This document shows positions 17,393 through 37,588 of a DNA stretch of 53,408 nucleotides, one piece after another (position 1 is the stretch's first letter; each line of letters opens with the position of its first letter). This DNA comes from Balneolaceae bacterium (GTDB taxonomy: Bacteria; Bacteroidota; Rhodothermia; Balneolales; Balneolaceae), in the NCBI GenBank assembly GCA_007135335.1, contig SLJB01000188.1:1-53408 (forward strand), given 5' to 3'. The position numbers and the translations under genes are program-made. Below the pieces are notes generated by a model. The model was given only the letters and a program-made list of their open reading frames with translations. It was not told where the DNA came from and searched no databases.

Positions 17393-18696
17393 CAGTGTCC
17401 CTCCAGGTGAATGTGTGAGTTGGCAGAAGCCCGGAAAATTTCGTACCCGCCTACAGCATAATCACGATCTTCGGGGTTCTCCCGGTCCCAGATTTTTTCG
17501 CCTTCAATCCAGGTCTGCTCCACATGGGTGTACACACTAAAGGGATCACCTGAAAGGATTAGAAAATCAGCATCTTTACCCGGCTCCAGGGAGCCCACGC
17601 GATCTTCAATATCCATCATTCTGGCGCCGGCAATAGTGAGTGCTTCAAGAGCTGCTTCTCGGCTCATTCCTTCGCGAATGGCCTGTGCGGCAGAGCGAAT
17701 CAAAAAGCGAGAATCCACAATGGGATCATCCGAATGAAATGCCACAGGAGCACCGGCTTTTTCAAGTTCACGGCCATTAATATTCAGCAGATTAATCGCT
17801 TCCATTTTGCCGCCCGGCGAATCAAGAGTTATTATTGACGAACCCAATACCGATGATTTGGCAATCTCTTCAGCCACTTTCCAGCCTTCACTTACATGCT
17901 GCAGAACCATCCTGTAGCCGAACTCTTCAGACAGGCGAATTGCGGTAAGAATATCATCATGACGGTGGGTGTGGTTATGCACAATCCGCTTTCCTTCTAA
18001 CACTTCAACCAGTGTTTCCATTTGCAGATCCCGTGAAGGCATCTCATCCGGATTTCCATTAGCTGCATCAACTTTAGCTTTGTATTCCTGCGCTTTCACA
18101 AACAGTTCACGTGCCAGAGCAGCAGATTTTGCCCTTGTGGATGGTGACCCATCTGCCCTGAGAGGATTGGTGCCGTTTGCCATTTTGAGACCGCCGTAAA
18201 TTCCGTTTTCTTCATCTACTATAATCAACATCTCTTCAATGGTGTTAGCAGGCCTGGTTTTTACGTACACGGTCTGTCCGCTCATCAGCAAACCTGAACC
18301 GGGCATAATATTTACTGAGGTAACTCCGCCGGATGCTGCCTTACGAAATGTTTTACTTCGCGGATCTATGGTATCAAGAATGCGAACATCAGGATGGAGA
18401 GCTGCAGAGCGATCGCCGCCGTCACCTTCACCAATGTGAGAGTGGGTGTCAACAATACCGGGCATAATCACTTTACCTGATGCATCAATACGCTCAGCGT
18501 TCGCCGGGATGGATACACTGCCCGCCTCGCCAACTGCTGTTATTTTTCCATTTTCAACCACAAGCACACCATTTGATATGGTTTCGCCCGTGATGGTTAT
18601 TATCTCTGCCCCTTCAAATGCATGGGGCCTCTCCTGTGCAAACAGGGAGGAGGTCATGCAAATTATTAAAAGAACAGCTTTTAAAGCTATTTTCAT
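17392..18696 (-). CDS. Amidohydrolase-family metallohydrolase, exported
   Basis: Signal peptide (SLFA-QE), PGIVDTHSH, KMANG, HNHTHR, LQHVSE, FHSDDP and GSLEPGKDADF. Confidence 0.9.
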   Translation of the reverse strand: MKIALKAVLLIICMTSSLFAQERPHAFEGAEIITITGETISNGVLVVENGKITAVGEAGSVSIPANAERIDASGKVIMPGIVDTHSHIGEGDGGDRSAALHPDVRILDTIDPRSKTFRKAASGGVTSVNIMPGSGLLMSGQTVYVKTRPANTIEEMLIIVDEENGIYGGLKMANGTNPLRADGSPSTRAKSAALARELFVKAQEYKAKVDAANGNPDEMPSRDLQMETLVEVLEGKRIVHNHTHRHDDILTAIRLSEEFGYRMVLQHVSEGWKVAEEIAKSSVLGSSIITLDSPGGKMEAINLLNINGRELEKAGAPVAFHSDDPIVDSRFLIRSAAQAIREGMSREAALEALTIAGARMMDIEDRVGSLEPGKDADFLILSGDPFSVYTHVEQTWIEGEKIWDRENPEDRDYAVGGYEIFRASANSHIHLEGH

Positions 18697-18881: not shown

Positions 18882-19940
18882 TTATGCCGGTTTAATAACT
18901 GCACGGCCGGTTATTTCACCCTTTTTCACTTTATCCAGGAGTTTATCAGCCGCTTCAAGGCCGTACGTTTCTACGGGAATAGATTTCAGCTTTTTTCCCC
19001 TTACAATATCTATCAGCTCTCTTAACTCATCCAGTCCGCCGGTGTATGATCCACGGATGGTAAGATTTTTTAGTGTAGCTACGGGATTTGAAAATGTAAG
19101 TTTTCCGCCAAATAAGCCTACCATAACCATAACCCCATTTTTTTGGAGCATACTGAATGCTGCTGCAGACGTCTGCCCGTTATTAACAAAATCAACAATA
19201 GCGGATGCACCTTTTTGATCTGTCAGCTCCATAACCCTGCTTACCGCATCCTCCTTTTTCGAGTTTACAGTAACATACTCACCCAGTTCTTTTGCAGATT
19301 TCAGTTTGCTGTCATCCACATCTATCACAACAACCTTTGCAGCAGTTAGCTCATGTACCACCTGCATTGCCATTAAACCAAGCCCTCCCGCCCCGATAAT
19401 TACCAGGGTTTCACCCGCTTCAAGCGGCATTGTTTTTTTGAGTGCGCTATACGCTGTAAGTCCTGCACAGGCGTAAGAACAGGCATTTTCAGGTTTCAAA
19501 CCGTCAATATCCACGAGGTACTTTTCATCCGGAACGAGAATATAATCGCTGTAGCCTCCATTCCGAAACACACCCAAAGAATCAGGGGAGAGACACATGT
19601 GCATACGATCGTTTTTGCAATATTTGCAATCACCGCAACCCACCCATGGGTAGACCAGACGCAGATCCCCTTTTTCAACTCCTTTCACGTCATCACCTGT
19701 TTTTTCAACAGTGCCTACAACTTCATGCCCAAGCGTTAATGGCAGATTAACTCCGCGTTCTGCTATGTACATACGCTCGTCGTCCCCAAGTTCGTAGTAT
19801 CCTTCCCATATATGCAGATCGGAATGGCATACACCACAGGCATCTACTTTCAGAAGTACTTCTCTGCCTTTTGGAACAGGCGTATCGAGATGTGCCCATT
19901 TTAAAGGTTTACCGAATTCTGCAAGTTGTAAGCTTTTCAT
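18882..19940 (-). CDS. Zn-dependent alcohol dehydrogenase, 6-hydroxyhexanoate dehydrogenase (ChnD)-like
   Basis: GVCHSDLHIWEGYYELG, LPLTLGHE, VYPWVGCGDCKYC..C and GAGGLG. The WEGYYxLG insertion is typical of the ChnD-like MDR subgroup (recalled, not searched). Confidence 0.88.
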   Translation of the reverse strand: MKSLQLAEFGKPLKWAHLDTPVPKGREVLLKVDACGVCHSDLHIWEGYYELGDDERMYIAERGVNLPLTLGHEVVGTVEKTGDDVKGVEKGDLRLVYPWVGCGDCKYCKNDRMHMCLSPDSLGVFRNGGYSDYILVPDEKYLVDIDGLKPENACSYACAGLTAYSALKKTMPLEAGETLVIIGAGGLGLMAMQVVHELTAAKVVVIDVDDSKLKSAKELGEYVTVNSKKEDAVSRVMELTDQKGASAIVDFVNNGQTSAAAFSMLQKNGVMVMVGLFGGKLTFSNPVATLKNLTIRGSYTGGLDELRELIDIVRGKKLKSIPVETYGLEAADKLLDKVKKGEITGRAVIKPA

Positions 19941-20027
19941 AACATCTTTTTTGTTGATTATAAATTTAGCATCGATATACGTTGAGAATCTGTGAACTCT
20001 TAACGAATGATCGAAATATCCGCGGAT

Positions 20028-21458
20028 TTACGAACCATGATTAATAACCACCGTTTTAACAGCGGTAACATCAAAAAGAGCTTCAAAGCCCTTCTCACGG
20101 CCAAACCCGCTCTTTTTCATGCCGCCAAACGGAAGCTCCACTCCGCCGCCGGCACCGTAACCATTTATGTATACCTGCCCGGCATGGATGGCATTAGTCA
20201 CTCGGTGCGCCCGGCCGTTGTCTTTTGTCCAGACTGCGGCAATCAAGCCGTACTCCACATCATTGGCAATACGAATGGCATCAGCCTCATCTTTGAAAGG
20301 AATGACCGCCAATACCGGACCAAACACCTCATTTTGTGCGATAAAGCTGTCGTTGTTTACTCGTCCCATCAGTGTAGGCGGATAGAAATATCCTTTGCCT
20401 TCAGGCTTTTTGGCTTGAGCAAGAATTTTTGCTCCATTCTCCTTGGCACGTTTCACAAATTCTTCTACCCGCTGCAGCTGTTTTTTGTTGATGATGGGTC
20501 CGATATCAGGATTCGTATCAGCAGGGCCTACTTTAATTTTTTTAAATCGCTCAATCAGTTTATCCACAAAATCATCATGAATATCTTCCTGAATTACCAA
20601 ACGCGAGCCGGCAGAACAGGTTTGGCCTGCGTTCTGAATGATGGCATTCACCACTACGGGAAGTGCTGCATCCAGATCGGCATCGTTAAAAATTACCTGC
20701 GGAGATTTTCCGCCAAGCTCCAGCAAAACGGGACGTATGTGATTAGCTGAATTTTTCATGACCTCAATTCCCACTTCCGGTGATCCTGTAAATGCCATGT
20801 GATCAATTCCGGAATGATTGGCAAGTGCAGCACCCGCTTCCTGACCAAGCCCGGTAATAAGATTAAGAGTACCTGCCGGAAAATCGAGTTCTGAAATCAG
20901 CTCAAAAGCCCGTACCACGGCAAGGCAGGCATCTTCGGCCGGTTTAAATACCACGGCATTCCCTGCTGCCAGTGCGGGTGCCAGAGTTCTGCCTGTCATC
21001 TGCAGAGGATAGTTCCACGGTATGATATGGCCGGTTACACCAAGAGGAACCCGTTGTGTATAAACCGTGTAACCGTCTTTAAATGGAATGGTATCTCCAT
21101 GAAATTTATCAGCCGCACCGGCATAAAATTCAAAGTAACGGGCAATGAGCGTGGCATCGGTTTTAGCCTGCTTTATCGGTTTGCCGGTATCCATCGATTC
21201 CAGTTCAGCCAGTTCATCGCTATGCTCCAGTAATATCTGAGCTGCTTTATATAGTAATCTACCACGATCTTCAGCCGAGGTTTTACCCCATTCACCTTCA
21301 AAAGCAGCACGTGCAGCTTTCACAGCTTCATCCACATCTTTCTCGCCACTTCGGGCAATTTCACCTGCTTTGGTATCGTACGATGGGTTCACCATATCAA
21401 GTCTACCGAGTGAACCGTCCTTCCATTTTCCGTTGATATAATTTTGTGCTTTGGTCAT
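20028..21458 (-). CDS. NAD-dependent aldehyde dehydrogenase
   Basis: IIPWNYP, FTGS, LELGGKSP, catalytic Cys in NAGQTCSA, EVFGPV and PFGGMKKSGFGREKG. Confidence 0.95.
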   Translation of the reverse strand: MTKAQNYINGKWKDGSLGRLDMVNPSYDTKAGEIARSGEKDVDEAVKAARAAFEGEWGKTSAEDRGRLLYKAAQILLEHSDELAELESMDTGKPIKQAKTDATLIARYFEFYAGAADKFHGDTIPFKDGYTVYTQRVPLGVTGHIIPWNYPLQMTGRTLAPALAAGNAVVFKPAEDACLAVVRAFELISELDFPAGTLNLITGLGQEAGAALANHSGIDHMAFTGSPEVGIEVMKNSANHIRPVLLELGGKSPQVIFNDADLDAALPVVVNAIIQNAGQTCSAGSRLVIQEDIHDDFVDKLIERFKKIKVGPADTNPDIGPIINKKQLQRVEEFVKRAKENGAKILAQAKKPEGKGYFYPPTLMGRVNNDSFIAQNEVFGPVLAVIPFKDEADAIRIANDVEYGLIAAVWTKDNGRAHRVTNAIHAGQVYINGYGAGGGVELPFGGMKKSGFGREKGFEALFDVTAVKTVVINHGS

Positions 21459-21469
21459 GGTACTCTGTT

Positions 21470-22777
21470 TTATTTTATGATTAATTCCGGTATCAGATCT
21501 TCTGGATCTGAGTGCAAAATCCAGTCTGATATCATGCTTGATCTATCATTTTCAACACCCGCGTAATTCATCAGACCCTTAAACTTTTTGATCAGCTCTT
21601 CTTTATTCAGCGGATTCTCAGGATCGCCTTTCGCCGATTTTATTACGGAAACAGACTCACTTTTGGCCATTTTTACTATTATCTGTGCACCCCAATGCCG
21701 CGGAAAAGCATCCTCAAATTCTTTCCCGGTTCGAACGGTTATTTTTGAGATCAGCTCTGATGCCCGCTGCGAATCAAGCTGATTTCCCTCAAAATGCTGA
21801 AGGACAGGAAATCCTTTTTCAAGGGCAAGACTCACACAGTATTGAATGCTGAATTTTGCAGCAAACGTGGAGTCCGGCATTGGATTGTCCGTAATTCGAA
21901 GGGCCGTTTCGTATGTAGTTATATCAATAGACTCAATTTCTTTTGTTGGAATTTCTGAGTCTTCATTTTTTTGCCTGATTTCAAGAGCAGCGTCAATAGC
22001 GGGGTGTGTGTGCCTGCAAGAGGGATACGGTTTGATGGACGTTTCACTCAGTTTCCATCCGTCTGACGGTTTCGTAACGGCGCCGGGATTGGGATCGGGA
22101 CAGAAACCTTCAAAAAAACCCTTTTTGCCTTCAAATATTTTTTCTGCTCCTGTAAAGTTTTCGGCAGCAAGAAGTGCAGCTTTTAATCCCGCTTCGGCTG
22201 CATGGCCTGCATGCAGGTGTTTGCTCATTGCGGCATCTTCGTTGAATTGCCAGAGGCCTGCAGCCTGAGTTCCCGCATTTCCCATTGCCCACACAAACCT
22301 GTCTTCGCTCAATTCAAGCAGTTTCGATGCAGCAGCAGCAGCCCCGAATACACCGGTTGTAGCCGTGTTATGAAAAATCTTATAATGCCCGGGCCCCACT
22401 CCCTCGCCAACTCTGCACATAACCTCATATCCATAAAGCGATGCAAGCAAACACTCTGTAAAACTTTTCTTTAAAAACCGGGTAAGGTGCCACGAAACCG
22501 GAAACACCACACACGCCGGATGCGTTACCGAAGCTCTGTGTAAATCATCGGTTTCTGTGATGTGTGAGTGAGCTGCCATCAGAAATACTTCCTGCAGCAA
22601 ACCGGTTCCGGCCCACTTAGAATTCCATCTGCTTAGTATTTCACCTTGATTTGTAACCGTCCCGGCCGCGTAACAGCCCATCCAGTCGAGCATAAACAGC
22701 CTTGCATCCTCCAGATCATTTTCTGCAACTGATTTTTCCTCCAGTAAATGATACAGCTGCCGGCTTATTGATTCCAT
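21470..22777 (-). CDS. MmgE/PrpD family protein (isomerase/epimerase/decarboxylase-type)
   Basis: ETDDLH..SVTHP, GYEV, HNTATTG, KHLHAG, KPYPSCRHTH, AKFSIQY and KGDPENP. I chose the ATG at 22777 (MESIS..), which overlaps the end of the upstream gene. Confidence 0.9.
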   Translation of the reverse strand: MESISRQLYHLLEEKSVAENDLEDARLFMLDWMGCYAAGTVTNQGEILSRWNSKWAGTGLLQEVFLMAAHSHITETDDLHRASVTHPACVVFPVSWHLTRFLKKSFTECLLASLYGYEVMCRVGEGVGPGHYKIFHNTATTGVFGAAAAASKLLELSEDRFVWAMGNAGTQAAGLWQFNEDAAMSKHLHAGHAAEAGLKAALLAAENFTGAEKIFEGKKGFFEGFCPDPNPGAVTKPSDGWKLSETSIKPYPSCRHTHPAIDAALEIRQKNEDSEIPTKEIESIDITTYETALRITDNPMPDSTFAAKFSIQYCVSLALEKGFPVLQHFEGNQLDSQRASELISKITVRTGKEFEDAFPRHWGAQIIVKMAKSESVSVIKSAKGDPENPLNKEELIKKFKGLMNYAGVENDRSSMISDWILHSDPEDLIPELIIK

Positions 22778-23616
22778 GAATAAACCCACTTTACAGTAGC
22801 CATCATCGCTATTTTATTATCAGGGCCGAGAACTCTCATTTCAGCTCTGGTATTATCCACATCTTTACTGGTAATCGTTATCTCTTCGCCCAGATAAATT
22901 GGGCCTGCGGCTCTATATTCAACCTCCTCAATCACTTTTCCATCGCTTTTCGATTTGAATGCATTCAGCATCAGGGTGAGCAAAAACGGGCCGTGCACAA
23001 CCAGATTCGGATAACCCTCTTTTTCATGGGTGTATGGATAATCATAATGAATTTTGTGCCCGTTAAATGTCAGTGCAGAGTACCGAAACAATTCAGCTGA
23101 GGTAAGTAAACGGTTTTTTTTCCAGTCAAAATCGATATCCATCGGTTTGGTTCTGATGGGGTGTGCACCCTCTTCTGATTTTTCTCTGTACACAATTTGC
23201 TGCTCTTCATCTACAGCCACTGAACCCGATGCGCTGATCTGATGCCGAACTGTAACAAAACAGAGTTTTCCGCTTGTTCCCTCTTTTTCATCAATCTTTA
23301 CAATAGTTGATTTTTTATCAGCCGGATTTCCGGTCTTCAGAGGTTTTTTGAAGAGAATTTTTCCGCCTGCCCACATTCGAACGGGCAGATCAACCGGGGG
23401 CAGAAAATCCCCTTTTTTTGCGTGGCCATCATCAGCAATATCCGATTGCCTTTCAATGGGTGTAAAATATACCCAGTGAGCGCATGGCGGCAAGGTAGTG
23501 CCGGCCCGGACATCACCGGTTTGTCTATCCATAAGTGCTTCAAACCGCTGAAGCTGTTCAGGTGCCATTGTATCACTCTGATCTTTCGATTTACCAATCC
23601 ACTCTTTGTAGTTCAT
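22765..23616 (-). CDS. Double-hotdog (MaoC-type) hydratase, itaconyl-CoA hydratase / mesaconyl-C4-CoA hydratase-like
   Basis: WIGK, LPPCAHWVYF, DGHAKKGDFLPP, RMWAGG, IVYRE, LFRYSALTFNGHKIHYD and EGYPNLVVHGP match the Ich/Meh group as recalled. Confidence 0.88.
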   Translation of the reverse strand: MNYKEWIGKSKDQSDTMAPEQLQRFEALMDRQTGDVRAGTTLPPCAHWVYFTPIERQSDIADDGHAKKGDFLPPVDLPVRMWAGGKILFKKPLKTGNPADKKSTIVKIDEKEGTSGKLCFVTVRHQISASGSVAVDEEQQIVYREKSEEGAHPIRTKPMDIDFDWKKNRLLTSAELFRYSALTFNGHKIHYDYPYTHEKEGYPNLVVHGPFLLTLMLNAFKSKSDGKVIEEVEYRAAGPIYLGEEITITSKDVDNTRAEMRVLGPDNKIAMMATVKWVYSWNQ

Positions 23617-24743
23617 TCTTCAAACTCCTTTTTAATTTTTTCATCATGTTCTCCAAGCGCAGGAATCGGACCAAAATCTGATTCAAAGCCTGAGAAAATT
23701 GCAGGCCTGTCGGCCATTTGAATATCCCCTGCAGGCGATGCAATTGTAGTAAGCCGCAACTGAGGATGCTCCTCAAACTGTGCCATTGTGTTCAAGTTGG
23801 CATACGCTATTTTTTGCTTCTTCAACTCATCCAATACCTCATTATAACTTAATTCCTTGAATTTCCGTTGGATAATGCTGTTCAGCTCCTCCCGGTTTTT
23901 AACTCTGAGCGAATTTTTACTGAACCGTTCATCCTCCGGGCTGATGGCACCCTCCAACAAAATATCACAAAACCGCACCCATTCACGCTCATTCTGTATC
24001 CCGATCATAACTTCTCTGCCGGAAGCTGTTTTAAACGGGCCATAGGGAGCTATAGCTGCATGGTGAACACCGGTTCGGGCGGGTGCTTCCCCGCCATATT
24101 TCTGATGCAGCCAGGGAACCATCATCCAATCAGCCATGGCATCAAACATGGAGATTTTTATGGCCACACCCTCTTCGGATTGTTTGCGATGAATCAGAGC
24201 TTCAAGAATGGCAGAATACGCGTGCATGCCCGTACTGATATCGGCGATAGAGATTCCAACTTTGGCACGAACATCTCCGGCACCCGTTACATCAATCAGC
24301 CCGGTTTCTGCCTGCACAAGATTATCATAGGCCTTCATCTCTGAATACTCACCCTCTTCACCATATCCGCTGATGTCGCAGGTAATGAGCTGCGGGTGAA
24401 TTTCCCTGAGTTTTTCGCTGTGAAGATTAAGCTTCTTCAGCGCGCCGGGTGCCAGATTCTGAATGAATACATCAGCTTCTGCAATCAGTTTTAAAAATAG
24501 CGAGCTACCCTCATCCGATTTTATATCAACCCGAACGGATTCCTTCCCGCGATTCAGCCAGGTAAAATAGGTGCTTTGTCCCTTCACCACTTCATCGTAC
24601 TGCCGCGCGAAATCACCTGTACCTTCTCTTTCAATTTTGATGACTCGTGCACCCGCATCAGCGAGTCTGCAACTGGCAAACGGCGCCGATACAGCCTGTT
24701 CTATACTTACAACGATAATCTCCTGCAGAGGTTTGAATTTCAT
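23613..24743 (-). CDS. Family III (CaiB/BaiF) CoA-transferase, itaconate CoA-transferase-like
   Basis: EQAVSAPFASCRLADAGARVIKIER, WLNRGKES, QNLAPGA, KAYD and SIADISTG (catalytic Asp). Confidence 0.92.
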   Translation of the reverse strand: MKFKPLQEIIVVSIEQAVSAPFASCRLADAGARVIKIEREGTGDFARQYDEVVKGQSTYFTWLNRGKESVRVDIKSDEGSSLFLKLIAEADVFIQNLAPGALKKLNLHSEKLREIHPQLITCDISGYGEEGEYSEMKAYDNLVQAETGLIDVTGAGDVRAKVGISIADISTGMHAYSAILEALIHRKQSEEGVAIKISMFDAMADWMMVPWLHQKYGGEAPARTGVHHAAIAPYGPFKTASGREVMIGIQNEREWVRFCDILLEGAISPEDERFSKNSLRVKNREELNSIIQRKFKELSYNEVLDELKKQKIAYANLNTMAQFEEHPQLRLTTIASPAGDIQMADRPAIFSGFESDFGPIPALGEHDEKIKKEFEE

Positions 24744-24783
24744 CGATTCTATTATTCAAATATCAAAAAGTTAACTTTACAAC

Positions 24784-25947
24784 TCAGTAGGATCTTGGCA
24801 GGCCAAGTACATGCTCAGAAAGGTATGCCAGAATCAAATTTCTGGATATGGGTGCCACCTGATAAAGTCTTGTTTCACGGAATTTTCGTTCAATGGCAAA
24901 ATTTGCATCAAATCCTCGCCCGCCATAGGTTTGCATGGCTACATTAGCGGCTTCCCATGAGGCTTCAGAGGCCAGCAGAAGTGCTGTATTTGCTTCTTCG
25001 CCACATTTTTTACCCGCTTCAAAGATTGCGCATCCTTTTTTCACCATCATTTCGGCGGCCAGCATGGAAGCATAGGCACGGGCTATCGGAAACTGAATAC
25101 CCTGGTTCTGCCCGATCGGGCGCTCAAACAGCTCTCTTTGATTAGCCCAGCTAACTGAACGGTTAATAAACCACTTTGCATCGCCCACGCACTCCGAGGC
25201 AATGAGCAGGCGTTCGGCGTTCATCCCATCAAGAATATACCGAAAACCCTTACCCAGCTCACCAACCAGATTCTCATCCGGGATGAATAGATCTTTAATG
25301 TAGATCTCAGTAAGTGAGTGATTCATCATGGTTCGGATGGGGCGAATGTCCAGGCTTTTACCCTTCTCTTTTCGCATATCCACAAGAAATGTCGAAAGTC
25401 CATCCACTTTTTTTTCAACATCTTCAAGCGGGGTCGTGCGGGCAAGCAGAAGCATCAGATCGGAATACTGTCCGCGCCCAATATAAAATTTATGGCCATT
25501 TACCAGATAGCCGCCATCTACTTTTTTTGCGAATGTTCGCAGCTTTGTGGTGTCACTACCCGTGTGTTTTTCCGTTACGCCGAACACCTGGAGCCGCAAC
25601 TCACCAGAGGCAATTTTTGGTAGATATCGCTGTTTTTGCTCCTCATTTCCGTGCTTTAACAAAGAGCCCATAATGTACATCTGCGCATGACACACCCCTC
25701 CGTTGCAGCCGTTGGCCTGTATCTCTTCCATAATAGCAGTGGCTTCAGTAAGCGTTCGTCCTTCACCGCCGTATTTTTTTGGAATGAGTACAGATAACAG
25801 TCCGCTTTGGCTCAGTTCATCCACAAATTCAGATGGATATTTTCTGTTTTCATCGAGATCCTGCCAATACTCGTCCGGATATTTTTTGGTGATTTCACGG
25901 ACTCTGCTTCTTAACTCTTCATGCGTTTCTTGTAAACTTATATTCAT
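24784..25947 (-). CDS. Acyl-CoA dehydrogenase (candidate methylsuccinyl-CoA dehydrogenase)
   Basis: CHAQMYIMG, FGVTE..TGSDT, NGHKFYI, GMNAERLLIA, RPIGQNQGIQFP and RETRLYQVAPIS. Substrate inferred from context. Confidence 0.92.
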   Translation of the reverse strand: MNISLQETHEELRSRVREITKKYPDEYWQDLDENRKYPSEFVDELSQSGLLSVLIPKKYGGEGRTLTEATAIMEEIQANGCNGGVCHAQMYIMGSLLKHGNEEQKQRYLPKIASGELRLQVFGVTEKHTGSDTTKLRTFAKKVDGGYLVNGHKFYIGRGQYSDLMLLLARTTPLEDVEKKVDGLSTFLVDMRKEKGKSLDIRPIRTMMNHSLTEIYIKDLFIPDENLVGELGKGFRYILDGMNAERLLIASECVGDAKWFINRSVSWANQRELFERPIGQNQGIQFPIARAYASMLAAEMMVKKGCAIFEAGKKCGEEANTALLLASEASWEAANVAMQTYGGRGFDANFAIERKFRETRLYQVAPISRNLILAYLSEHVLGLPRSY

Positions 25948-25972
25948 ATTCTACCTCTGTATCATAAGTTAC

Positions 25973-26815
25973 CTAATTAAATCTTTTCGCTCGTTCAACA
26001 ATCCGTTTTGCCTGATGGATCACAGGCGGTTCCAGCACCATGCCCCGCCACGCCACTGCATGTCCGCCGGCTTCTTCAAAAATCCGGATCATCTCCCCGG
26101 CATCTTTAGCTTCTTTTTCGGATGGAGTAAATATGTTGTTAATTAATTCTATCTGTGCGGGATGTATGGCGGCCTTTGCTGTAAATCCAAATCGCTGAGC
26201 CTTTTCTGTTTCATGCTGAAGCCCGTTCAAATCATCTAATCCAAACCACGGCATATCGATTAGAGCAAGTTTAAGGCCGCCGGTACTTCGGATAAATTCT
26301 GACCGATAGGCAGAGAGCACATCCCACTCTTTCGAGCAGCCAAGTTCCATTGCCAGATCGTGTCCGCCAAAAACAGCAGCTGTAACCAGATTTATACTCA
26401 TTATTTTACGTGCGCTTTCCAGACCTTCTGAAGTTTCAATAAGCGGAATAAGCTGCGTTTTTTTGTCGAACATAATGAGCTGTTTCCCCAAACGCTCAAG
26501 GGGTTCCGGCCCGGTAAGTTTTGGTACCATAAGCCCCCCTGCAGGCCGGCTCAACTCCCTGATCATCTCTATATCACTGTTTCCGGCATCTGTTTCGGGC
26601 GAATTGATTCTTAACATAACCGGCACATGAGCTGTTATACCATGCTCAAGAAATGCAAAAACTTTGGATCTTGCGTCTCTTTTTTCAGCAGCAGGCACAC
26701 TGTCTTCAAGGTCAATGCAGATAGCATCCGTACCGGATGCCACAGCTTTTTCCCACTTATCCAGTTTACCGGCCGGAACAAAAAGCAGGCTGCGAATGTG
26801 AGTTAAGTTATTCAT
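25973..26815 (-). CDS. CitE/HpcH-HpaI family CoA-ester lyase (citramalyl-CoA lyase-like)
   Basis: RSLLFVPA, IDLEDSV, LRINS, VPK, LIET, GGHDL and GFTAKAAIHPAQI. Confidence 0.92.
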   Translation of the reverse strand: MNNLTHIRSLLFVPAGKLDKWEKAVASGTDAICIDLEDSVPAAEKRDARSKVFAFLEHGITAHVPVMLRINSPETDAGNSDIEMIRELSRPAGGLMVPKLTGPEPLERLGKQLIMFDKKTQLIPLIETSEGLESARKIMSINLVTAAVFGGHDLAMELGCSKEWDVLSAYRSEFIRSTGGLKLALIDMPWFGLDDLNGLQHETEKAQRFGFTAKAAIHPAQIELINNIFTPSEKEAKDAGEMIRIFEEAGGHAVAWRGMVLEPPVIHQAKRIVERAKRFN

Positions 26816-26834
26816 ATCAGAAATGGTTCTTGTA

Positions 26835-27389
26835 TTAATAATCTACGTTCTCTTTTTGAATGTATGATAAAACTTCGGGCCTCAATGAAAGTTTTGCCGC
26901 TGCCTGAAAGTGTTCATCAATATAGAGCCAGTCTTGCGGAGGCCGATTTTTCAGTTTCACCACAAATGTTTTCAGATAGAAGAGCCTGCAGTTATCTGCA
27001 GACAGTTCATAATCTTTTAGCAGTTTATTTCTGCTGAGAACAATTCCTTTCATCAGATCGATAGCTTCGTCATCTGCATCTTTCTCCGTTATTTTTAAAT
27101 CGGGAACAATGCCCTTCATCACACCGGATGAATGTATTTCCGGATAAGATGTTACTCTTTCACGAATCGGTCTCAGGCAATCAACTGCCACCAGATCTTT
27201 GTATGCCATACCTTTTTTCAGGTAGGTATCCATTTGTACTGTAACAGATACGTAGTACCATGGATACCAGAAGGTTAAAAATCCTTCTTTTTCATATTTG
27301 TTCAAAAACCTGCGAAACGGGTAAGCGCTTTTTATCCCGAAGCGAATCTGCTTATCACTAAGCTCTGCATGTACAGCTGTTTTCTTCAT
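26835..27389 (-). CDS. Hypothetical soluble protein in the catabolic operon
   Basis: A 184-aa ATG ORF filling the gap between the symporter (41 bp) and the lyase (19 bp). No recognised family. Confidence 0.8.
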   Translation of the reverse strand: MKKTAVHAELSDKQIRFGIKSAYPFRRFLNKYEKEGFLTFWYPWYYVSVTVQMDTYLKKGMAYKDLVAVDCLRPIRERVTSYPEIHSSGVMKGIVPDLKITEKDADDEAIDLMKGIVLSRNKLLKDYELSADNCRLFYLKTFVVKLKNRPPQDWLYIDEHFQAAAKLSLRPEVLSYIQKENVDY

Positions 27390-27430
27390 GAATCAGGATT
27401 TCTAAATATCCCGCTTTACCGAGATGAACA

Positions 27431-28933
27431 TTATTTACGAACCGGTGAAAATATTTCGTTTAACTTATCCTCCGGCATGGGCTCTGTAACCAGGCTTACC
27501 ACAACCATCACAACAGAGGCAAGAATTACGCAAACACCCGCTGCTCCAAATGGATTTTGCCAGCCTATAACCAACCACATTGCTGCATAGCTTACTACCC
27601 CCACAAGAAATGAGGAGATCGCGCCTGCCTTGGTGGATCTTCTCCAAATAGACCCAATCACAAGCGGGCCGGCTGCACCACTCATAATTCCTCCAACTCC
27701 TATCCACAGAAGTATAGCAAGGAAATCAGGCGGATTCCAGGCCAGCCACATCGCTGCAAAAACTGTAAGGATAGTGGCTCCCCGTGATATATTTAATGCT
27801 GTTTTTTCAACCTCTTTTTGAGATTTGTTGGGATGAATTTTGTGTGAAAACGTTTTTCTATACAGATCGTTACTGAAAATCACAGCAATGGATACAAATA
27901 GCCCGTCTGCTGTGGAAATAATGGCTGATAAAATAGCGATACCTAAAAACCCGGCAAGTGCGGGCGGGAACAGCTCCACAAAAAGTGCGGGGATAGCAGC
28001 ATCAGGACGCAACTCAGGACCAATCAGCGCCCTTGCATGCAACCCACCCAAAACAGCAAAACCAAGAATAGAACCAATTGGAATAGCCATGATTAAAAAC
28101 TTGCGTAACTGTGCCGAATCTTTCAGAGCGAATGCTTTATTGCCGATATGCGGGTTCATCGCAAAGGGCAAATGGGCAATAAACATCAGAATAACCAGCC
28201 ATAAACTGCCAAATATCGGATCACCGGCAGAGAAGTAGTTATCCCAGGTCAGGCTGGCATCCTGTGCACCAATCGCTGCATTGATCCCGGCAGCTCCACC
28301 TTCCGTTCCGGTTCCAAGAAAAAACATTACGGTTATCAGCAGGGCTATCAGCAGCATGAGCCCACCCTGAAATGCATCTGTTAAAATATCTGCATGCGAT
28401 CCGCCAATGGTTATGTAAATGCCGATAACTATCACCGTTACGATTACGCCCCATTGGTAATCAACCCCAAGCATTACCTCAAAAGCCGTTGCTGCGGCAA
28501 CAACCTGTGCCGTTACATAATAGATTAATAACAGAGATAGCAGTGCGAACCCAACCCTAAGAAAATCGCTATCGAACCGCTGACCCAGAAACTCCGGCAG
28601 GGAGTTCGACCGAAAAGCATCACCAGCCCGTTTTATCAGCTGCACAGATAAGATCAGCCCAATGTAAATTCCAATTGGATAAATTGCAGGATACCACAAC
28701 GCGGGAAAACCTTTATCATAGGCGAGCCCGGGAATTCCCATAAATGTGGCACCGCTGGCTATGGTTGAAGCCAGGGCCAGAACAAGGATGTATGGGCCGT
28801 ACGATTTTCTGGCAACGGCAAAGTCCTCGTCAGTTTTGGTTTTGGTCATTGCGTAAACGCCAATGCCCAATGTGCCAACAATAAAAAAGACTAACCAAAA
28901 CCAGGCCCAGGCACCAATTGAGAGTTCATCCAT
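27431..28933 (-). CDS. Sodium:solute symporter (PanF/PutP-like)
   Basis: 500 aa, about 13 TM segments. EDFAVA, ASGATFMGIPG, LPEFLGQRF, GGSHADILTDAFQG, SAIISTAD and WRRSTKAGA. Confidence 0.95.
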   Translation of the reverse strand: MDELSIGAWAWFWLVFFIVGTLGIGVYAMTKTKTDEDFAVARKSYGPYILVLALASTIASGATFMGIPGLAYDKGFPALWYPAIYPIGIYIGLILSVQLIKRAGDAFRSNSLPEFLGQRFDSDFLRVGFALLSLLLIYYVTAQVVAAATAFEVMLGVDYQWGVIVTVIVIGIYITIGGSHADILTDAFQGGLMLLIALLITVMFFLGTGTEGGAAGINAAIGAQDASLTWDNYFSAGDPIFGSLWLVILMFIAHLPFAMNPHIGNKAFALKDSAQLRKFLIMAIPIGSILGFAVLGGLHARALIGPELRPDAAIPALFVELFPPALAGFLGIAILSAIISTADGLFVSIAVIFSNDLYRKTFSHKIHPNKSQKEVEKTALNISRGATILTVFAAMWLAWNPPDFLAILLWIGVGGIMSGAAGPLVIGSIWRRSTKAGAISSFLVGVVSYAAMWLVIGWQNPFGAAGVCVILASVVMVVVSLVTEPMPEDKLNEIFSPVRK

Positions 28934-28939
28934 ATCAGA

Positions 28940-29029
28940 TTACGTCCAGTCTTCTTTTTTACTTACATAATAGATACCGCCCACCCAATAGATGAGAATA
29001 ATGATTCCTAAAAGGATGAGCAGATTCAT
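28940..29029 (-). CDS. 29-aa single-TM peptide, probable symporter accessory subunit (not in ORF track)
   Basis: Manual translation gives MNLLILLGIIILIYWVGGIYYVSKKEDWT*. Its stop is 6 bp before the symporter ATG. Confidence 0.75.
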   Translation of the reverse strand: MNLLILLGIIILIYWVGGIYYVSKKEDWT

Positions 29030-29064
29030 ATTTCAGAGGATGAAATTGGAGGTGGTATGAAGGT

Positions 29065-29111
29065 AAAAAATATAAAGCACCGGACTCTGTACAACCCAAT
29101 TTCCGGTGCTT
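29065..29111 (-). terminator. Intra-operon hairpin/terminator after the lactonase gene
   Basis: Perfect 10-bp stem AAGCACCGGA (29075-29084) / TCCGGTGCTT (29102-29111) with a 17-nt loop, followed on the minus strand by TATATTTTTT. Confidence 0.55.
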
Positions 29112-29133
29112 CAATTTAGTTGTTAATCAAAAA

Positions 29134-29991
29134 TTAGTCGTAATACTCAGGGAGCAGTCTTCTTTGCTGAAATTGCTCCATGCTATGCCCGAGCCAAATT
29201 TCACCATTTTCCCGGTCGCGTATCAGTTTCATTCGTTCAATGGCTTCCATTGCATCCTGAACACTCCACACAATTCCGGGAACAGTTCCTTGAAGGTTTT
29301 CAGGCATATAAGCTGCATCAGCCGCGAGAATTACAGTTCCTGTATTTGGGAGCCTCACTATTAGAGACTGGTGCCCCTGGGTGTGGCCTTTCGTATCAAT
29401 AAGTTCGATAGCGCCATCACCGAACAGATCAAGATCGTCAGTTACCTCAATGAAGTTGAAATTTCTGGTGTTTTTGTAATCATCCAATACATAAGCAGCG
29501 CGCTGAAACTGCTCCGGCCACCATGCATTTTTCAGCTCAGCTTTACGGACTATGTGAGTGGCATTGGGAAACATGCTGATGTTACCGGCATGGTCCAGGT
29601 GGAAATGAGAATGAATCACATATTTTACATCTGTAGTGGATTTACCGATTTGCTGAAGCCGTTCATCAATACCCTGATCGCGGGTCATACTTGGTATGAA
29701 TGCCTGCGATACGGGGCCCCAATACTCAGCACCGTTGTCAGGAACTACATCAACACTCATCCCCGTATCGAAAACAACAAGGCCTTTAGGATGGTCGATG
29801 ATATACATAGGCACAGGAATATCAATCATAGTGCCGTGGTTAGTCATAGCTGTAAGCCAGCCCTGATCAAGTTCAAGCTCACCACTTGTTGTTACGTACA
29901 TTTTGATATCGCTATCCTGAGCATGGGTAGATGAGAGAAGAGCAAACATCAATAAGAGGGAAATTGCAGCTGAAAAAAGATATTTAATCAT
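29134..29991 (-). CDS. Exported metallo-beta-lactamase-fold lactonase (AiiA/AttM N-acyl homoserine lactonase family)
   Basis: Sec signal (..SSTHA-QD), FDTG, HxHxDH motif HFHLDH, GHTQGH, ADAAY (bridging Asp plus Tyr) and a C-terminal GH. Confidence 0.9.
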   Translation of the reverse strand: MIKYLFSAAISLLLMFALLSSTHAQDSDIKMYVTTSGELELDQGWLTAMTNHGTMIDIPVPMYIIDHPKGLVVFDTGMSVDVVPDNGAEYWGPVSQAFIPSMTRDQGIDERLQQIGKSTTDVKYVIHSHFHLDHAGNISMFPNATHIVRKAELKNAWWPEQFQRAAYVLDDYKNTRNFNFIEVTDDLDLFGDGAIELIDTKGHTQGHQSLIVRLPNTGTVILAADAAYMPENLQGTVPGIVWSVQDAMEAIERMKLIRDRENGEIWLGHSMEQFQQRRLLPEYYD

Positions 29992-30132
29992 AGTTGAAAC
30001 CGGTTAGAATTAACGATTTAAAAAAGCGCTTCCGTGATTTTAGTAAAATGAATCCACGATCGCAACTGCAATACGAAATGTTTACATTTTGATATAAATT
30101 GTTCACTTCATTCAACTTATTAAGGAGACATT

Positions 30133-30927
30133 ATGAAAAAAAGAATCAGAGCTGTTCAGCAGATACTGCAGGAAATGGGGTTGTATAATGGCCAAATTGA
30201 TGGAATTGCCGGGCCAATTACCAGAAAAGCTATACAAACCAACCAAGAAATTGATCCAGCCCTGCCCATGACTCGCCAGATTACTGCATTCATACAGATT
30301 GAAGCAAAAAAGAGAGGGATCGATGCCGGACCTGTCGATGGCCTTTGGGGGCCGAGAACCTCCGCTGCTTTTGATGAGCTCCTCTATCAACTGGAATATG
30401 AAACCCCGCAACCGGTATGGAGGCCCGACGAGATTTCCATACCAAACCCCAACAATTGGCCCGTGCAGCAAACGGATCAATTTCTAAATGTTTTCGGGGA
30501 GAGAGGTTCTCAGCTTGTAATGATCAATCTGCCCTATGAAATGAAACTATCCTGGGATTTGCGCATCCGAACCCGACGTACTCAGTGCCATACCAAGGTT
30601 GCTGACAGCCTCGGGCGCATCCTGCAGAAGGTTCTTGAAATCTATGGGGAAGATGAGATCAGCAATCTTCAGCTCGATCATTTTGGTGGTTGCTATAATG
30701 ACAGGGTTATGAGAAACGGAACGGCATGGTCTATGCACGCATGGGGATTAGCCCTCGATTTTGATCCTCGGCGGAATGCTCTTAACTGGGGGCGTGATCG
30801 AGCCGCACTTGCCCGCCCTGATTATTATGATTGGTGGAAATGCTGGGAAGAGGAGGGGTGGATAAGTCTTGGGCGAAAACGCAATTTCGATTGGATGCAT
30901 GTGCAAGCTGCCAGGCTGCCTGAGTAG
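30133..30927 (+). CDS. Peptidoglycan-binding domain + M15 family metallopeptidase
   Basis: Two PG-binding motifs (IDGIAGPIT, VDGLWGPRT) and M15 motifs YNDR..SMHAWGLALD..DWMHVQ. Confidence 0.88.
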   Translation: MKKRIRAVQQILQEMGLYNGQIDGIAGPITRKAIQTNQEIDPALPMTRQITAFIQIEAKKRGIDAGPVDGLWGPRTSAAFDELLYQLEYETPQPVWRPDEISIPNPNNWPVQQTDQFLNVFGERGSQLVMINLPYEMKLSWDLRIRTRRTQCHTKVADSLGRILQKVLEIYGEDEISNLQLDHFGGCYNDRVMRNGTAWSMHAWGLALDFDPRRNALNWGRDRAALARPDYYDWWKCWEEEGWISLGRKRNFDWMHVQAARLPE

Positions 30928-31049: not shown

Positions 31050-32954
31050 CTACTGCGCCCACCATAATGGTGTTAGTACTTCATCAGGGCCATTTAAATA
31101 CCCAACAGCCTGCTCATACCCGGCCGGGTTTTCATTTGACAATCTGGATGGATAACGTAAGCGCTGAGGGAAAAAGGATCTTCTGCTTTCCATATAATTT
31201 CCCTGGTTCAGATCCGGCAGATTCACGATTGGCAGTTCTACTGAAGGATTCTCAAAGAATGGGAGCCCCAGCCTGCGGTGATCATTCCATGCTTCTAAGG
31301 GTAAGTAGGGAAGCTGAGCTAAATATTTTTGAGTAATCACTTTAGTAAGATGGTCGTTTTTCACATTTCCATTTGCATACAGATGATTATCCGGATAATT
31401 GAACTGATACACACCCTCCTCATTTGTGTACCCATTTACATACGTTTTACTAACTGTTGATGGAGGTTCCGTGGTATGATCCCAGCTAACGGATGTGCCT
31501 GCTCGGTTGTAGCTTTCAGATCGAATATATTCATCAAAAAACTGATCTGAGTCCCAATATGCTAAACTTGCACGAATACCTTCTTCATAGGCAGTTTTAG
31601 CATCCATAGGCACACTCCAGCCCCTGATACCGGCTTCGGCTATTAGAAAATGAGTTTCCCATGCAGCAAAAAATATCCGATCTTCACTCCCTGAACGGAA
31701 TCTTTGGCTGAGACGAGGTGATGTTCCCGCATACCCTGCCAATTGATTTCTCGGTGCTTTATTCCCCCAGTTGCCTAAAGGTACTGCATTCCAGTGCCCG
31801 GTGGCATCTACAGTTTTCATGACTTCACCATCTTCATCCATCAGATTTCGCTGAACGGTAAAGGCATCCTGTGTCCAGGATGGGAAATGGCTAAACCCTG
31901 AATTATCGAACCAGCCGGGAATGATAAATGCTTTATAGGCTCTTGGATCGATTTGATTGGGAAGACCATCAAGCCAAAATCCGGCAGTCGGATCATTTGT
32001 ATATGTGCCCAGATGATTTTCCAACCTCAGACCCATATATTCAGCAGGTTTTATATAGTTATGGAAACTTTCCGGTACTTGTCTTTCTGTGGGAATCCCA
32101 CCCAGGCCCAAGTATAAATTATTCATAGTTGCCGAAAGAACCTGCGCGTTCCACTCGCGTGACATCACCGCTGTGAGATCATCCCAGCCGCCGCCTTCCT
32201 CAACTGTGAATGCGTGGTCGGCATGTGTGATGATTAGCCCGGATGCAGCATCCTCAAATTCTGACTGAGCTCTCGCCGGCTCTACTTCTGATAACCTCAT
32301 AGCAAGCCTCATTCTCATGGAATTGCCATATCTAACCCAGTTTTCAAGATTGAAACCGTAGGCTTTATCAAACCTGTCGATGCTTGACGGAATCGGTGTG
32401 TTCATATCAATCTGAGCTACGGCATCTTTTAGCTCTTCCAGCATGTACGAATAAACAGATGCCACATCTCTGAATTCAGGGTTCTCTCCCTGAAAGCCAT
32501 CAATCGGCATTGGGCCAAAGTTATCCGTGAATTCACTCATCAGATATGTACGCCAGATGCGTGCAACCTGAATCAGATTGTTAGTGTATGCGAAATTTAC
32601 ACCTTCTGAAATCTGCTCTTCTCCCACGGAAACGGCAAGATTGGCAGTTCGAAGCCATCTCGACAGCGAACCATAATAATCGTTGGTCCAGCCATCATTA
32701 TATGAACCTAATGCTAATGAACCGTTAGCCCGATGCTGCCTGCCTGCAGTTTTCCAGTAGAGAACAAAAGCTCGTTCAGCATCATGAGGATTCATTTGTG
32801 CCCCGGTAATCGAGGAGTTTATAAAGTATTCTACCTGAACCTGGTCGAAGCTTGCGGCTTTTGGATCTGTATTCACGTCCAGAAAACCATCAGAACATGA
32901 AACCAGGAATAGTATTCCGGCAATGATTGACGTAAGTATTGTTATTTTCTTCAT
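31050..32954 (-). CDS. SusD/RagB family outer-membrane lipoprotein
   Basis: Lipobox LVSC, FTDNFGPMP, GNSMRMRLAMRLS, ITQKYLA, EAWNDHRRLG and RLRYP. Lies directly downstream of susC. Confidence 0.93.
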   Translation of the reverse strand: MKKITILTSIIAGILFLVSCSDGFLDVNTDPKAASFDQVQVEYFINSSITGAQMNPHDAERAFVLYWKTAGRQHRANGSLALGSYNDGWTNDYYGSLSRWLRTANLAVSVGEEQISEGVNFAYTNNLIQVARIWRTYLMSEFTDNFGPMPIDGFQGENPEFRDVASVYSYMLEELKDAVAQIDMNTPIPSSIDRFDKAYGFNLENWVRYGNSMRMRLAMRLSEVEPARAQSEFEDAASGLIITHADHAFTVEEGGGWDDLTAVMSREWNAQVLSATMNNLYLGLGGIPTERQVPESFHNYIKPAEYMGLRLENHLGTYTNDPTAGFWLDGLPNQIDPRAYKAFIIPGWFDNSGFSHFPSWTQDAFTVQRNLMDEDGEVMKTVDATGHWNAVPLGNWGNKAPRNQLAGYAGTSPRLSQRFRSGSEDRIFFAAWETHFLIAEAGIRGWSVPMDAKTAYEEGIRASLAYWDSDQFFDEYIRSESYNRAGTSVSWDHTTEPPSTVSKTYVNGYTNEEGVYQFNYPDNHLYANGNVKNDHLTKVITQKYLAQLPYLPLEAWNDHRRLGLPFFENPSVELPIVNLPDLNQGNYMESRRSFFPQRLRYPSRLSNENPAGYEQAVGYLNGPDEVLTPLWWAQ

Positions 32955-32967
32955 GTCTATAATTGTT

Positions 32968-35900: not shown

Positions 35901-36123
35901 ACTCGCCATCAGCATTCGTTACAGTTCCCGTTTGTGTGCCAACTTCCATAACATTGGCCCCTGGTATGGGCTCGTTGGTTTCACCATCAACAACCTGGCC
36001 GGATATTCCGAAACCCTGTGCTGACACAAAGTTCGGCAAACTCATCGCCAGACAAAGTACCAGACTCAGTAAGCCCGTCGCTTTTGCTGCCTTTTGTAAG
36101 ATATGATTGTACAAAGTGTGCAT
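32968..36123 (-). CDS. SusC/RagA family TonB-dependent transporter
   Basis: Signal peptide, N-terminal GQVVDGETNEPIPGANV domain, PLIVVDG, IESVSVLKGASAAALYGARAGNGVILITTK and a C-terminal aromatic residue. Confidence 0.96.
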   Translation of the reverse strand: MHTLYNHILQKAAKATGLLSLVLCLAMSLPNFVSAQGFGISGQVVDGETNEPIPGANVMEVGTQTGTVTNADGEFSFTASGSDVQIRVSFIGYRVQIIDVNGRSNITIRLQQEVGQLGDLVVTAFGVPRERKSLGYAIQDIQGDALLESRETNLANAFTGKVSGLQVIRSSTGPAGSSQIVLRGHSSLTGDNQPLIVVDGIPINNFTGPDNSDYWSPSLDMGNGLGDINTNDIESVSVLKGASAAALYGARAGNGVILITTKSGQSRPGLGVTFSTSLGIESIFANPEMQRTFGQGTENSFNNESNSSWGPRIAGQTVENWDGRQVQMASYDNIRNYFDTGVSQNYNLSFQQGYENTSIYTSVTRRNENSMIPGTELTRTNLTTRAVSNFGVDNNWSIDAKVQYSNAEANNRPLLGHNQSNPYFTMYRLPVSMDIRQFDPSVDANGNMIWYGGSMQLNPHWTVNNNLNKDTRDRFLLQATVSHQFADWIGAEVTAGSDLYTTNTERRMYAGGPLATGGQFSMGKDTFFEHNFSYLISANQDNLFDRLGVSGSLGGNVMLQESEGISSNAGQLEVPNLFALNNSTTNPTVNEYFSQKRILSLYGMLEFNWDNYFYLEGTLRNDWASTLSTDNRSFIYPSVSASLVFTDMLRSMDVSLPTWLTFARVRGSVAQVGNALEPYQLFNTFSIGNDPRGNTTADSRNVLFNPNVKSELITSREVGVDFRFFDNRLGIDFTWYQSNSTNQLLPIPMDPLSGFSARLINAGDIENKGVELMINANLVESRLGFQWNTQFNFSTNRNRIIKLYDGVDFYSLGGFDNLSIRAETGELFGEIYGSGFRRVEDESSPYFGQKIVDSNGFPLADQNVRLGNQQATALMGVTNTFGYRGLSLSFLVDARIGGEIFSQTNQQMQLMGTAAVTAPGGERQNMVVEGVIQNGDGSFSPNTTEITQQQYWTVVAGTGNLGINEANIYDATNIRLRYVSMNYDLPSRLIENLPVQGLRVGATVNNVWLITSHLNGYDPESVFATGTNALGFENAAPPTSRSFLFNLTVSY

Positions 36124-36328: not shown

Positions 36329-36415
36329 ATTGATTTTATGTTTAACAAAATTATCCATTAGTACTTATATACCCATAACAAGATTAGTTCAAACATCACA
36401 CTGTGTCACGGCATT

Positions 36416-37549: not shown

Positions 37550-37588
37550 ATTCCATCTGACAATGAAACCCAAATAATTAACCCGATC

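Follow-up and report, generated by a model that had tools for sequence, protein, structure and literature searches.

A candidate branched-lactone operon in a Balneolaceae bacterium joins a lactonase module to a methylsuccinate-type CoA pathway

The locus considered here is a cluster of 11 genes at positions 18882-29991 of contig SLJB01000188.1 from a Balneolaceae bacterium (assembly GCA_007135335.1); the window, that is, the whole stretch of DNA analysed, comprises 53,408 nucleotides. The two modules that it contains, a lactonase with an alcohol dehydrogenase (ADH) and an aldehyde dehydrogenase (ALDH), and a set of CoA-dependent enzymes for branched succinates, are each of an already known kind. 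In the blcABC (attKLM) operon of Agrobacterium, gamma-butyrolactone is degraded via the hydroxy acid and the semialdehyde, and BlcC hydrolyses acyl-homoserine lactones (AHLs) as well, according to the accessible part of PMC5924552. The branched-succinate module is represented by PA0878-PA0883 of Pseudomonas aeruginosa and by a cluster of Cupriavidus necator. The accessible sections of PMC12290011 state that methylsuccinate isomerase (Msi) belongs to a type working on free acids and not on CoA esters, that its site consists of H88, E91, H102, Y148, H152, K202 and K266, that the characterised substrates of the MmgE/PrpD family have a four-carbon 1,4-dicarboxylate in common, and that 96% of Msi sequences are found in Pseudomonadota; the same sections report Msi as inactive on itaconate, mesaconate, citraconate and citramalate, predict that its site accommodates C3 substituents, and treat the environmental origin of methylsuccinate as an open question.

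All 11 open reading frames (ORFs) of the cluster lie on the minus strand at the coordinates described in the initial annotation, which had presented them as co-oriented genes overlapping or spaced by at most 104 bp. The successive gaps from the lactonase to the ADH are indeed 104, 6, 41, 19, 25, 40, -4, -25, 11 and 87 bp, and beyond the ADH the next gene is 185 bp away. From the lactonase onwards, the genes are as follows:
29134..29991, minus strand: metallo-beta-lactamase (MBL)-fold lactonase, AttM/AiiA-like, 285 aa (Pfam, NCBIfam, motifs)
28940..29029, minus strand: 29-aa membrane peptide, likely a small symporter partner (ORF, locus comparison)
27431..28933, minus strand: sodium:solute symporter, 500 aa (Pfam SSF)
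26835..27389, minus strand: 184-aa protein without known family, likely linked to the symporter (profile match)
25973..26815, minus strand: CitE-family C-C lyase, RipC/citramalyl-CoA lyase-like, 280 aa (NCBIfam, PDB match)
24784..25947, minus strand: acyl-CoA dehydrogenase (ACAD), PA0879 (Mcd) superfamily, flavin site remodelled, 387 aa (alignments, tree)
23613..24743, minus strand: family III CoA-transferase, Ict-like, 376 aa (Pfam, 48% identity to the P. aeruginosa enzyme)
22765..23616, minus strand: itaconyl-CoA-hydratase-type double hot-dog hydratase, 283 aa (PDB matches)
21470..22789, minus strand: MmgE/PrpD protein with the seven methylsuccinate-isomerase residues, 435-439 aa (alignment)
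20028..21458, minus strand: aldehyde dehydrogenase, 476 aa (Pfam, plasmid matches)
18882..19940, minus strand: zinc alcohol dehydrogenase, likely an omega-hydroxy-acid dehydrogenase, 352 aa (Pfam, neighbourhoods)

The enzyme families assigned earlier agree with Pfam and NCBIfam: Pfam finds Lactamase_B, SSF, Aldedh and ADH_N/zinc domains among the upper and transport ORFs, and HpcH_HpaI/C-C lyase, Acyl-CoA_dh, CoA_transf_3, MaoC/FAS1_DH and MmgE_PrpD in the lower module, with no Pfam family for the 29-aa peptide and the 184-aa protein. At close identity, the genome has one copy of each of the 11 genes. We propose, with about even confidence, that the cluster is a catabolic operon which would convert an alkyl-gamma-butyrolactone or its 4-hydroxy acid into a 2-alkylsuccinate, most likely methylsuccinate, and then into a 2-oxo acid (pyruvate) and acetyl-CoA. 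The exported lactonase would open an alkyl-branched gamma-butyrolactone outside the cytoplasm; the symporter, together with the peptide and the 184-aa partner, would import the 4-hydroxy acid with sodium; and the ADH and ALDH would oxidise C4 to a carboxylic acid, yielding the 2-alkylsuccinate. The MmgE protein would interconvert the alkylsuccinate enantiomers, the CoA-transferase would activate C4, and the ACAD would desaturate the product to a mesaconyl-C4-type ester, possibly handing its electrons directly to O2. The hydratase would then yield a citramalyl-type ester, to be cleaved by the lyase into the 2-oxo acid and acetyl-CoA.

That the upper and lower modules belong together, as had been proposed, is supported by their co-conservation. 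In a survey of 201 genomes of the order Balneolales, the ACAD occurs in eight and the ADH in the identical eight, without a single case of one lacking the other. MmgE is found in 14 genomes, the same eight at 51% identity or above and six others at 29-39%. The lactonase search retrieved eight genomes, of which seven are ACAD carriers (at least 72%) and one is unrelated (31-35%); in the eighth ACAD carrier, which gave no lactonase match, the contig stops just upstream of the symporter. Fifteen loci were compared around the lactonase or the ACAD: eight span the distance from lactonase to ADH in identical order, and the remaining seven end at a contig or locus edge with the order unbroken, so the arrangement is not a matter of chance. 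This order is kept across two families. The closest named lactonase relatives come from metagenome-assembled genomes (MAGs) under the titles Balneolaceae or Rhodohalobacter, at 83-96% across the mature protein, followed by three MAGs under the titles Bacteroidetes or Chitinophagales (75-76%); the isolate names of several lactonase-bearing relatives presumably point to alkaline or salt lakes.

The lower module probably works like the Pseudomonas methylsuccinate cluster, to which the initial annotation had likened it. Homologues of Ich, Ccl, Ict, Mcd and Msi stand all together in one cluster here, so the five families are present, but they are not close orthologues of PA0878-PA0883, with identities of 30% for the lyase, 53% for the ACAD, 48% for the CoA-transferase, 38% for the hydratase and 35% for MmgE. 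Judged by these identities and by clade membership, the cluster is not a strict member of the Pseudomonas type. The hydratase matches 8khg and 8huc alone in the PDB (E about 2e-55). The lyase belongs to the CitE family, as first annotated, but resembles the RipC type more closely than it does the Pseudomonas lyase: its best PDB match is RipC, and its best model is the RipC/Ccl model NF038242, although at 211 bits it remains below the cut-off of 375. It retains R69, E127 and D153. CitE-type lyases require a 2-hydroxy acid, which implies a succinate backbone in the substrate. All seven Msi residues (P. aeruginosa Msi numbering) are present in 13/13 cluster copies of MmgE; the set is also retained in several non-Msi relatives and is hence not specific, so these residues fix the chemistry and not the side chain. 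In the three closest distant MmgE matches of the order (34-39%; L219 4204-5619, L220 10354-11691 and L221 9792-11123), which stand without the cluster, the catalytic residues are largely lost.

Because the isomerase residues are intact and the ACAD is among the best-conserved genes of the cluster (78-80% across families), a saturated, chiral 2-alkylsuccinate is a likelier intermediate than itaconate. This bears on the entry by way of tulipalin A and itaconate that was suggested at first, and which now appears disfavoured, since it would need neither isomerase nor ACAD. In its general form, this alternative supposes an unsaturated or hydroxylated lactone (alpha-methylene-gamma-butyrolactone, a methylbutenolide, paraconate or a sugar-derived compound) entering as itaconate, mesaconate, citramalate or itatartarate. 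Ich and the RipC-like lyase are itaconate enzymes, and the P. aeruginosa cluster offers a precedent with an unrelated 2-hydroxyparaconate lactonase of its own, according to the accessible part of PMC9875883. Against this stand the conservation of two superfluous enzymes and the reported inactivity of Msi on four acids of this kind (PMC12290011, accessible sections), and we regard such a substrate as very unlikely.

The upper module begins with a lactonase that carries the motifs HSHFHLDH at 127, GHTQGH at 202, ADAAY at 224 and GH at 268. Aligned to 9kho, it has the complete dizinc set (HXHXDH, a further His, Asp and Tyr), residues which we take to make up the dizinc site. Its N-terminus is signal-peptide-like by eye and by hydrophobicity, and 112 of the 120 lactonase homologues listed also have a hydrophobic N-terminus. 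The best matches are gamma-lactonases; identity to proteins annotated as AttM is approximately 35%, and the AttM model NF045700 gives 226 bits, below its cut-off of 390. The ALDH is 55% identical to that of a Chelatococcus plasmid cluster discussed below. A 56%-identical ALDH was also observed on a Klebsiella plasmid (L096 7295-15354), in an AtuA/DUF4387/short-chain dehydrogenase (SDR)/ADH/fumarate-hydratase cluster near CTX-M-24 and fosA3.

The ADH is likely an omega-hydroxy-acid dehydrogenase. Its earlier description as ChnD-like is backed by gene neighbourhoods and by no reference sequence: it is 40-42% identical to ADHs in cycloalkanone-type neighbourhoods, and both the chn label of these neighbourhoods and the name ChnD are our assumption. 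Five of its 54 plasmid matches were inspected; four have a flavin oxidoreductase and an alpha/beta hydrolase close by, the fifth a P450, a CoA-transferase and an ALDH. This pattern, and the fact that two of those loci adjoin an Mcd/Ict/Ich/lyase module, would suit a longer substrate, that is, a branched lactone or omega-hydroxy acid of C6-C7, or an isoprenoid fragment. Its diacid (e.g. 3-methyladipate) would first undergo chain shortening by beta-oxidation enzymes from outside the cluster and only then reach the lower module as methylsuccinyl-CoA. We consider this improbable: monooxygenase, thiolase and hydroxyacyl-CoA dehydrogenase are absent from the cluster, the lactonase resembles gamma-lactonases most, and an isomerase type that acts on free acids (PMC12290011, accessible sections) fits a free alkylsuccinate coming directly from the ALDH.

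Between the lactonase and the lower module lies a putative transport unit. The 29-aa peptide, found in 13/13 loci that hold both lactonase and symporter, is likely a small partner of the symporter, which is itself strongly conserved (mean column identity of 89% over 11 copies) and has its closest plasmid relatives in haloarchaea (41-43%). The 184-aa protein has no family by Pfam or NCBIfam, and its Atlas matches are unnamed clusters only. A profile comparison relates it to the gene that follows the symporter in three haloarchaeal loci (probability 84%, E 7e-6), with direct BLAST against one of the haloarchaeal proteins not significant. Such a homologue follows the symporter in all three haloarchaeal loci inspected, an annotated membrane peptide of 43-45 aa precedes the symporter in two of them, and each has an alcohol dehydrogenase or a hydroxyacid transhydrogenase nearby. 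The 184-aa protein is thus likely tied functionally to the symporter, and symporter, peptide and 184-aa protein would form a three-part unit that the cluster has in common with haloarchaea. In the same loci (L092, L093 and L094, around 9850-12350), CoA-transferase, ACAD, MmgE or hydroxyacid transhydrogenase genes adjoin the symporter unit.

The best specific model for the symporter is PanF (151 bits), which recalls the alternative of pantolactone raised in the initial annotation. Oxidation of pantolactone or pantoate would give 3,3-dimethylmalate, which, once epimerised and activated, would be cleaved to glyoxylate and isobutyryl-CoA, the latter then passing to the ACAD and hydratase. Every gene of the cluster would be employed, the clade-specific changes in ACAD and lyase would be accommodated, and the predicted tolerance of Msi for C3 substituents (PMC12290011, accessible sections) is compatible with it. 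However, PanF lies far below its cut-off of 328 and barely exceeds PutP (142 bits, likewise far below cut-off), and the ACAD nests among Mcd-like enzymes. Moreover, searches of five carriers found malate synthase in none of the five and no methylmalonate-semialdehyde dehydrogenase (MmsA) above cut-off, which leaves glyoxylate and isobutyryl-CoA without an evident sink. This route is therefore disfavoured and has very little probability in our estimate. As malate synthase was not found, a split that yields pyruvate suits the carriers better than one that yields glyoxylate.

The ACAD has an unusual flavin site. The cluster enzymes read K-F-Y-I-G-R, with Y155, G157 and L212 in 14/14 distinct sequences (one a partial duplicate) and R344 in all 13 that cover the position. 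By comparison, 93 other relatives have S157 in 93/93 and G157 in none, W155 in 89, T or S212 in 90, and F or Y344 in 92. His87 was considered as a carboxylate-binding marker of the ACAD and rejected, as isovaleryl-CoA dehydrogenase has it too. According to the accessible part of PMC6017585, the flavin motif of acyl-CoA dehydrogenases is K-X-W/F-I-T, the single change T317G confers an oxidase activity of 27.7 mU/mg on Rhodobacter Mcd, the variant W315F/T317G/E377N (Mco) reaches 97 mU/mg at the expense of transfer to electron-transfer flavoprotein (ETF), and solvent access is insufficient for O2 reactivity. In an alignment, G157 of the cluster enzymes falls in the column that holds Gly in Arabidopsis ACX4 and Thr in dehydrogenases; from the spacing, we infer that L212 corresponds to E377. 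Among the five other ACAD-like genes of the genome, four have Thr and one, distant, has Gly.

The genome encodes ETF, menD and a catalase-peroxidase, and no match to the iron-sulfur family of ETF-quinone oxidoreductase was found in it. Passing electrons from the desaturation of an alkylsuccinyl-CoA to menaquinone would be uphill, so an oxidase would have a purpose. Whether the cluster ACAD is a natural oxidase is in our view close to balanced, with the scale tipping slightly to the negative: the change in the flavin site belongs to one clade and counts as one event, and it could suit a different acceptor instead. If the enzyme is an oxidase, it provides a natural experiment on why acyl-CoA dehydrogenases avoid O2; as the engineered oxidase is slow (97 mU/mg; PMC6017585, accessible part), a natural counterpart would reveal which further residues are needed, and it could serve cell-free pathways. 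Combining both proposals gives a bolder and rather doubtful picture, namely an undescribed route by which a natural branched lactone would be turned into pyruvate and acetyl-CoA, with a natural alkylsuccinyl-CoA oxidase that carries the same change as was engineered for the CETCH cycle and dumps electrons on O2 because menaquinone-using cells take them poorly, the lactone being an unrecognised source of methylsuccinate.

Three regulatory elements, unmentioned in the initial annotation, are predicted around the first gene:
30037..30065, minus strand: putative sigma-70-like promoter, TTGCGA-17-TAAAAT (promoter scan, upstream alignment)
30022..30033, minus strand: palindrome GGAAGCGCTTTT directly after the -10 box, candidate operator (upstream comparison)
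29062..29113, minus strand: hairpin with a U run beyond the lactonase gene, either terminator-like or stabilising (folding z-score)

Overall, the promoter scan was no richer than shuffles (27 vs 27.6 sites); TTGCNAT is retained in 12/12 upstream regions, as is the palindrome core AGCGCTT. Sites of the form AAGCGCTT with A/T-rich flanks are intergenic in 18 of 29 cases in the genome, against approximately 11% of intergenic DNA, a share that depends on our own ORF caller and has no composition-matched control for location. Of the 24 ORFs beside palindrome sites, 18 were scanned and 16 named: both PEP carboxykinases, GAPDH, citrate synthase, glutamate synthase, aspartokinase, ProC and IlvD, as well as PaaA, HisC, two SusC, an amidase, GatB, CysH and FolP. 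The palindrome, which we take to resemble a LacI-type site (six LacI genes are present in the genome), thus looks like the mark of a global carbon and nitrogen regulon, one that appears undescribed, and a global regulator acting at this site likely controls the cluster promoter. Since the palindrome is common to genes of central metabolism, an operon for a carbon source is favoured over a stand-alone defence gene. The hairpin lies within the 104-bp gap after the lactonase and has a z-score of -2.8; z is at or below -2.8 against base shuffles in 12/13 relatives. It would raise the output of the lactonase above that of the other genes.

Several observations weigh against the proposed lactone-to-pyruvate operon. 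The same hairpin could uncouple the lactonase from the rest, and the sister group of the lactonase (identity about 50-63%), most members of which have a hydrophobic N-terminus, carries the annotation AHL lactonase, one orthologue being labelled MomL. None of the 11 genes reaches the cut-off of a function-specific NCBIfam model, and overall identity to the characterised cluster is just 30-53%. The ACAD forms its own clade apart from the P. aeruginosa Mcd clade (SH-aLRT 100, stem 0.6, in a quick tree on 40 chosen rows), and MmgE falls outside the Msi clade (FastTree; support of the Msi clade 100), the members of which are 62-71% identical to PA0881, compared with 35% for the cluster protein; the alkyl group could for this reason be larger than, or different from, a methyl group. 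The lyase has Glu262 where four aligned proteobacterial lyases have Asp, at a position that presumably has a catalytic role. The co-occurrence of the genes amounts to few independent events, as the carriers are kin. The Ich-type hydratase is found in 24 of the 201 genomes, 17 of which lack the cluster ACAD, and part of the lower module can therefore stand alone. Among 80 metagenome ACAD loci, 37 extend over at least 8 kb, and only one of these has the lactonase, in the same clade; an ALDH is present in four of the 37 and an ADH match in three, and the exact gene combination is narrow in distribution. Finally, simple lactones open spontaneously at high pH, and we know of no abundant natural source of methyl-gamma-butyrolactones in these habitats.

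Some of these observations would be explained if the operon housed two chemically separate functions, an exported lactonase for AHLs or for gamma-butyrolactone (with ADH and ALDH giving succinate) and a methylsuccinate or itaconate module fed by the symporter. The hairpin, the AHL lactonase labels and the 17 genomes with Ich alone, with or without a CoA-transferase, all accord with this, as does the dual activity of BlcC (PMC5924552, accessible part). A search for the context of the sister clade in 401 genomes of another phylum gave four lactonase matches (37-42%), none of them of the 50-63% group; in the three inspected, lower-module genes are absent nearby, and one has an adjacent iron-type dehydrogenase and, at a distance of about 5 kb, an ALDH. 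A double function nevertheless seems unlikely to us, because ADH, ACAD and MmgE share an identical presence in 8/201 genomes, because ADH and ALDH are placed at the far end, behind the lower module, and because Chelatococcus too has an ALDH of this type with its lower module. The wider spread of Ich, which sometimes adjoins a CoA-transferase, an ALDH, a lyase or the 184-aa gene alone, looks like the remnant of a larger, decayed cluster or like a second use. Loci L029, L030, L031, L032 and L035 have a CoA-transferase and Ich without ACAD, MmgE or lyase, often near a universal stress protein gene, and this pair is possibly a two-gene unit from itaconate to citramalate.

The surroundings of the cluster vary among relatives, in which an amidohydrolase pair, ABC/Gld-type genes after the ADH and an upstream peptidase come and go. 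Downstream of the ADH, tandem amidohydrolases with signal-peptide-like N-termini and a mutual identity of 35% occupy 16154-18696, with a paralogous set on contig C135; as such a pair follows the ADH in just one of the four relatives whose locus extends that far, it is placed outside the unit. Upstream, a divergent M15-type peptidase with a peptidoglycan-binding domain (30133-30927) lies 141 bp from the lactonase and is found only in some relatives. In the second family, a GntR-type gene stands ahead of the cluster; in the present genome it is located elsewhere. Further away, 31050-38677 is probably a polysaccharide locus, with a SusC-like/SusD pair and, divergent from it, CBM9 and glycoside-hydrolase-like genes, and 43542-53289 holds dnaN, tyrS, gyrB and gyrA; the GC skew of the window flattens near 30-44 kb. 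Horizontal transfer was considered on the basis of GC content and dropped, as there is no signal (36-47% per gene against 43% for the genome).

The initial annotation knew of no description of such a combined operon. The literature that we searched likewise contains no account of it or of its candidate substrates, subscription journals being mostly outside its scope. Apparently new are the joining of the modules, the lineage in which it occurs, the transporter triad and an ACAD with oxidase-like features. The operon names a testable class of precursors for methylsuccinate and extends this type of pathway beyond Pseudomonadota; if true, the lactone route would reveal an unrecognised environmental source of this acid.

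Partly comparable joins exist on alphaproteobacterial plasmids, all in uncharacterised clusters. On Actibacterium pNS6002 (L099 4278-15592) and Pseudosulfitobacter pSMR1-4 (L098 4916-14951), an ADH with 42% identity, an ALDH, an alpha/beta hydrolase and a flavin oxidoreductase lie beside ACAD, CoA-transferase, Ich and lyase; their ACADs are 81% and 73% identical to P. aeruginosa Mcd, and these clusters are likely routes for substituted cycloalkanones. Chelatococcus pCO-6 joins the five lower genes to an ABC importer, the ALDH mentioned above, an SDR and an MBL hydrolase whose N-terminus is twin-arginine-like (L087 11998-25236, L091 4736-8928). In all three, a hydrolase, an alcohol dehydrogenase and an ALDH adjoin a branched-succinate module, whereas the hydrolase or ADH families differ, two include the flavin oxidoreductase, and the ACADs keep Ser157. 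By gene content, they represent the same logic built from partly different parts.

With Agrobacterium blcABC, the present locus shares an MBL lactonase and alcohol and aldehyde dehydrogenases leading toward a dicarboxylate; it differs in the distance from AttM, in the signal-peptide-like N-terminus of the lactonase and in the CoA-dependent branched-acid module that follows. The ACAD resembles engineered Mco and Arabidopsis ACX4 in the Gly that ends the K-X-W/F-I-T motif, with Tyr at the W315 position and Leu at that of E377 by the inferred spacing. Unlike Mco, it is natural, has an additional Arg344 and belongs to the C4-type PA0879 superfamily, Mco being derived from an ethylmalonyl-CoA C1 enzyme. 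The nearest relatives of the lower module remain PA0878-PA0883 and the C. necator cluster, which have in common with it the five enzyme families, the seven Msi residues and an Ich structure as the sole PDB match. What sets the Balneolaceae-type cluster apart are its separate ACAD and MmgE clades, its RipC-type lyase with Glu262, its remodelled flavin site, and the MBL lactonase, ADH, ALDH and sodium symporter joined to it.

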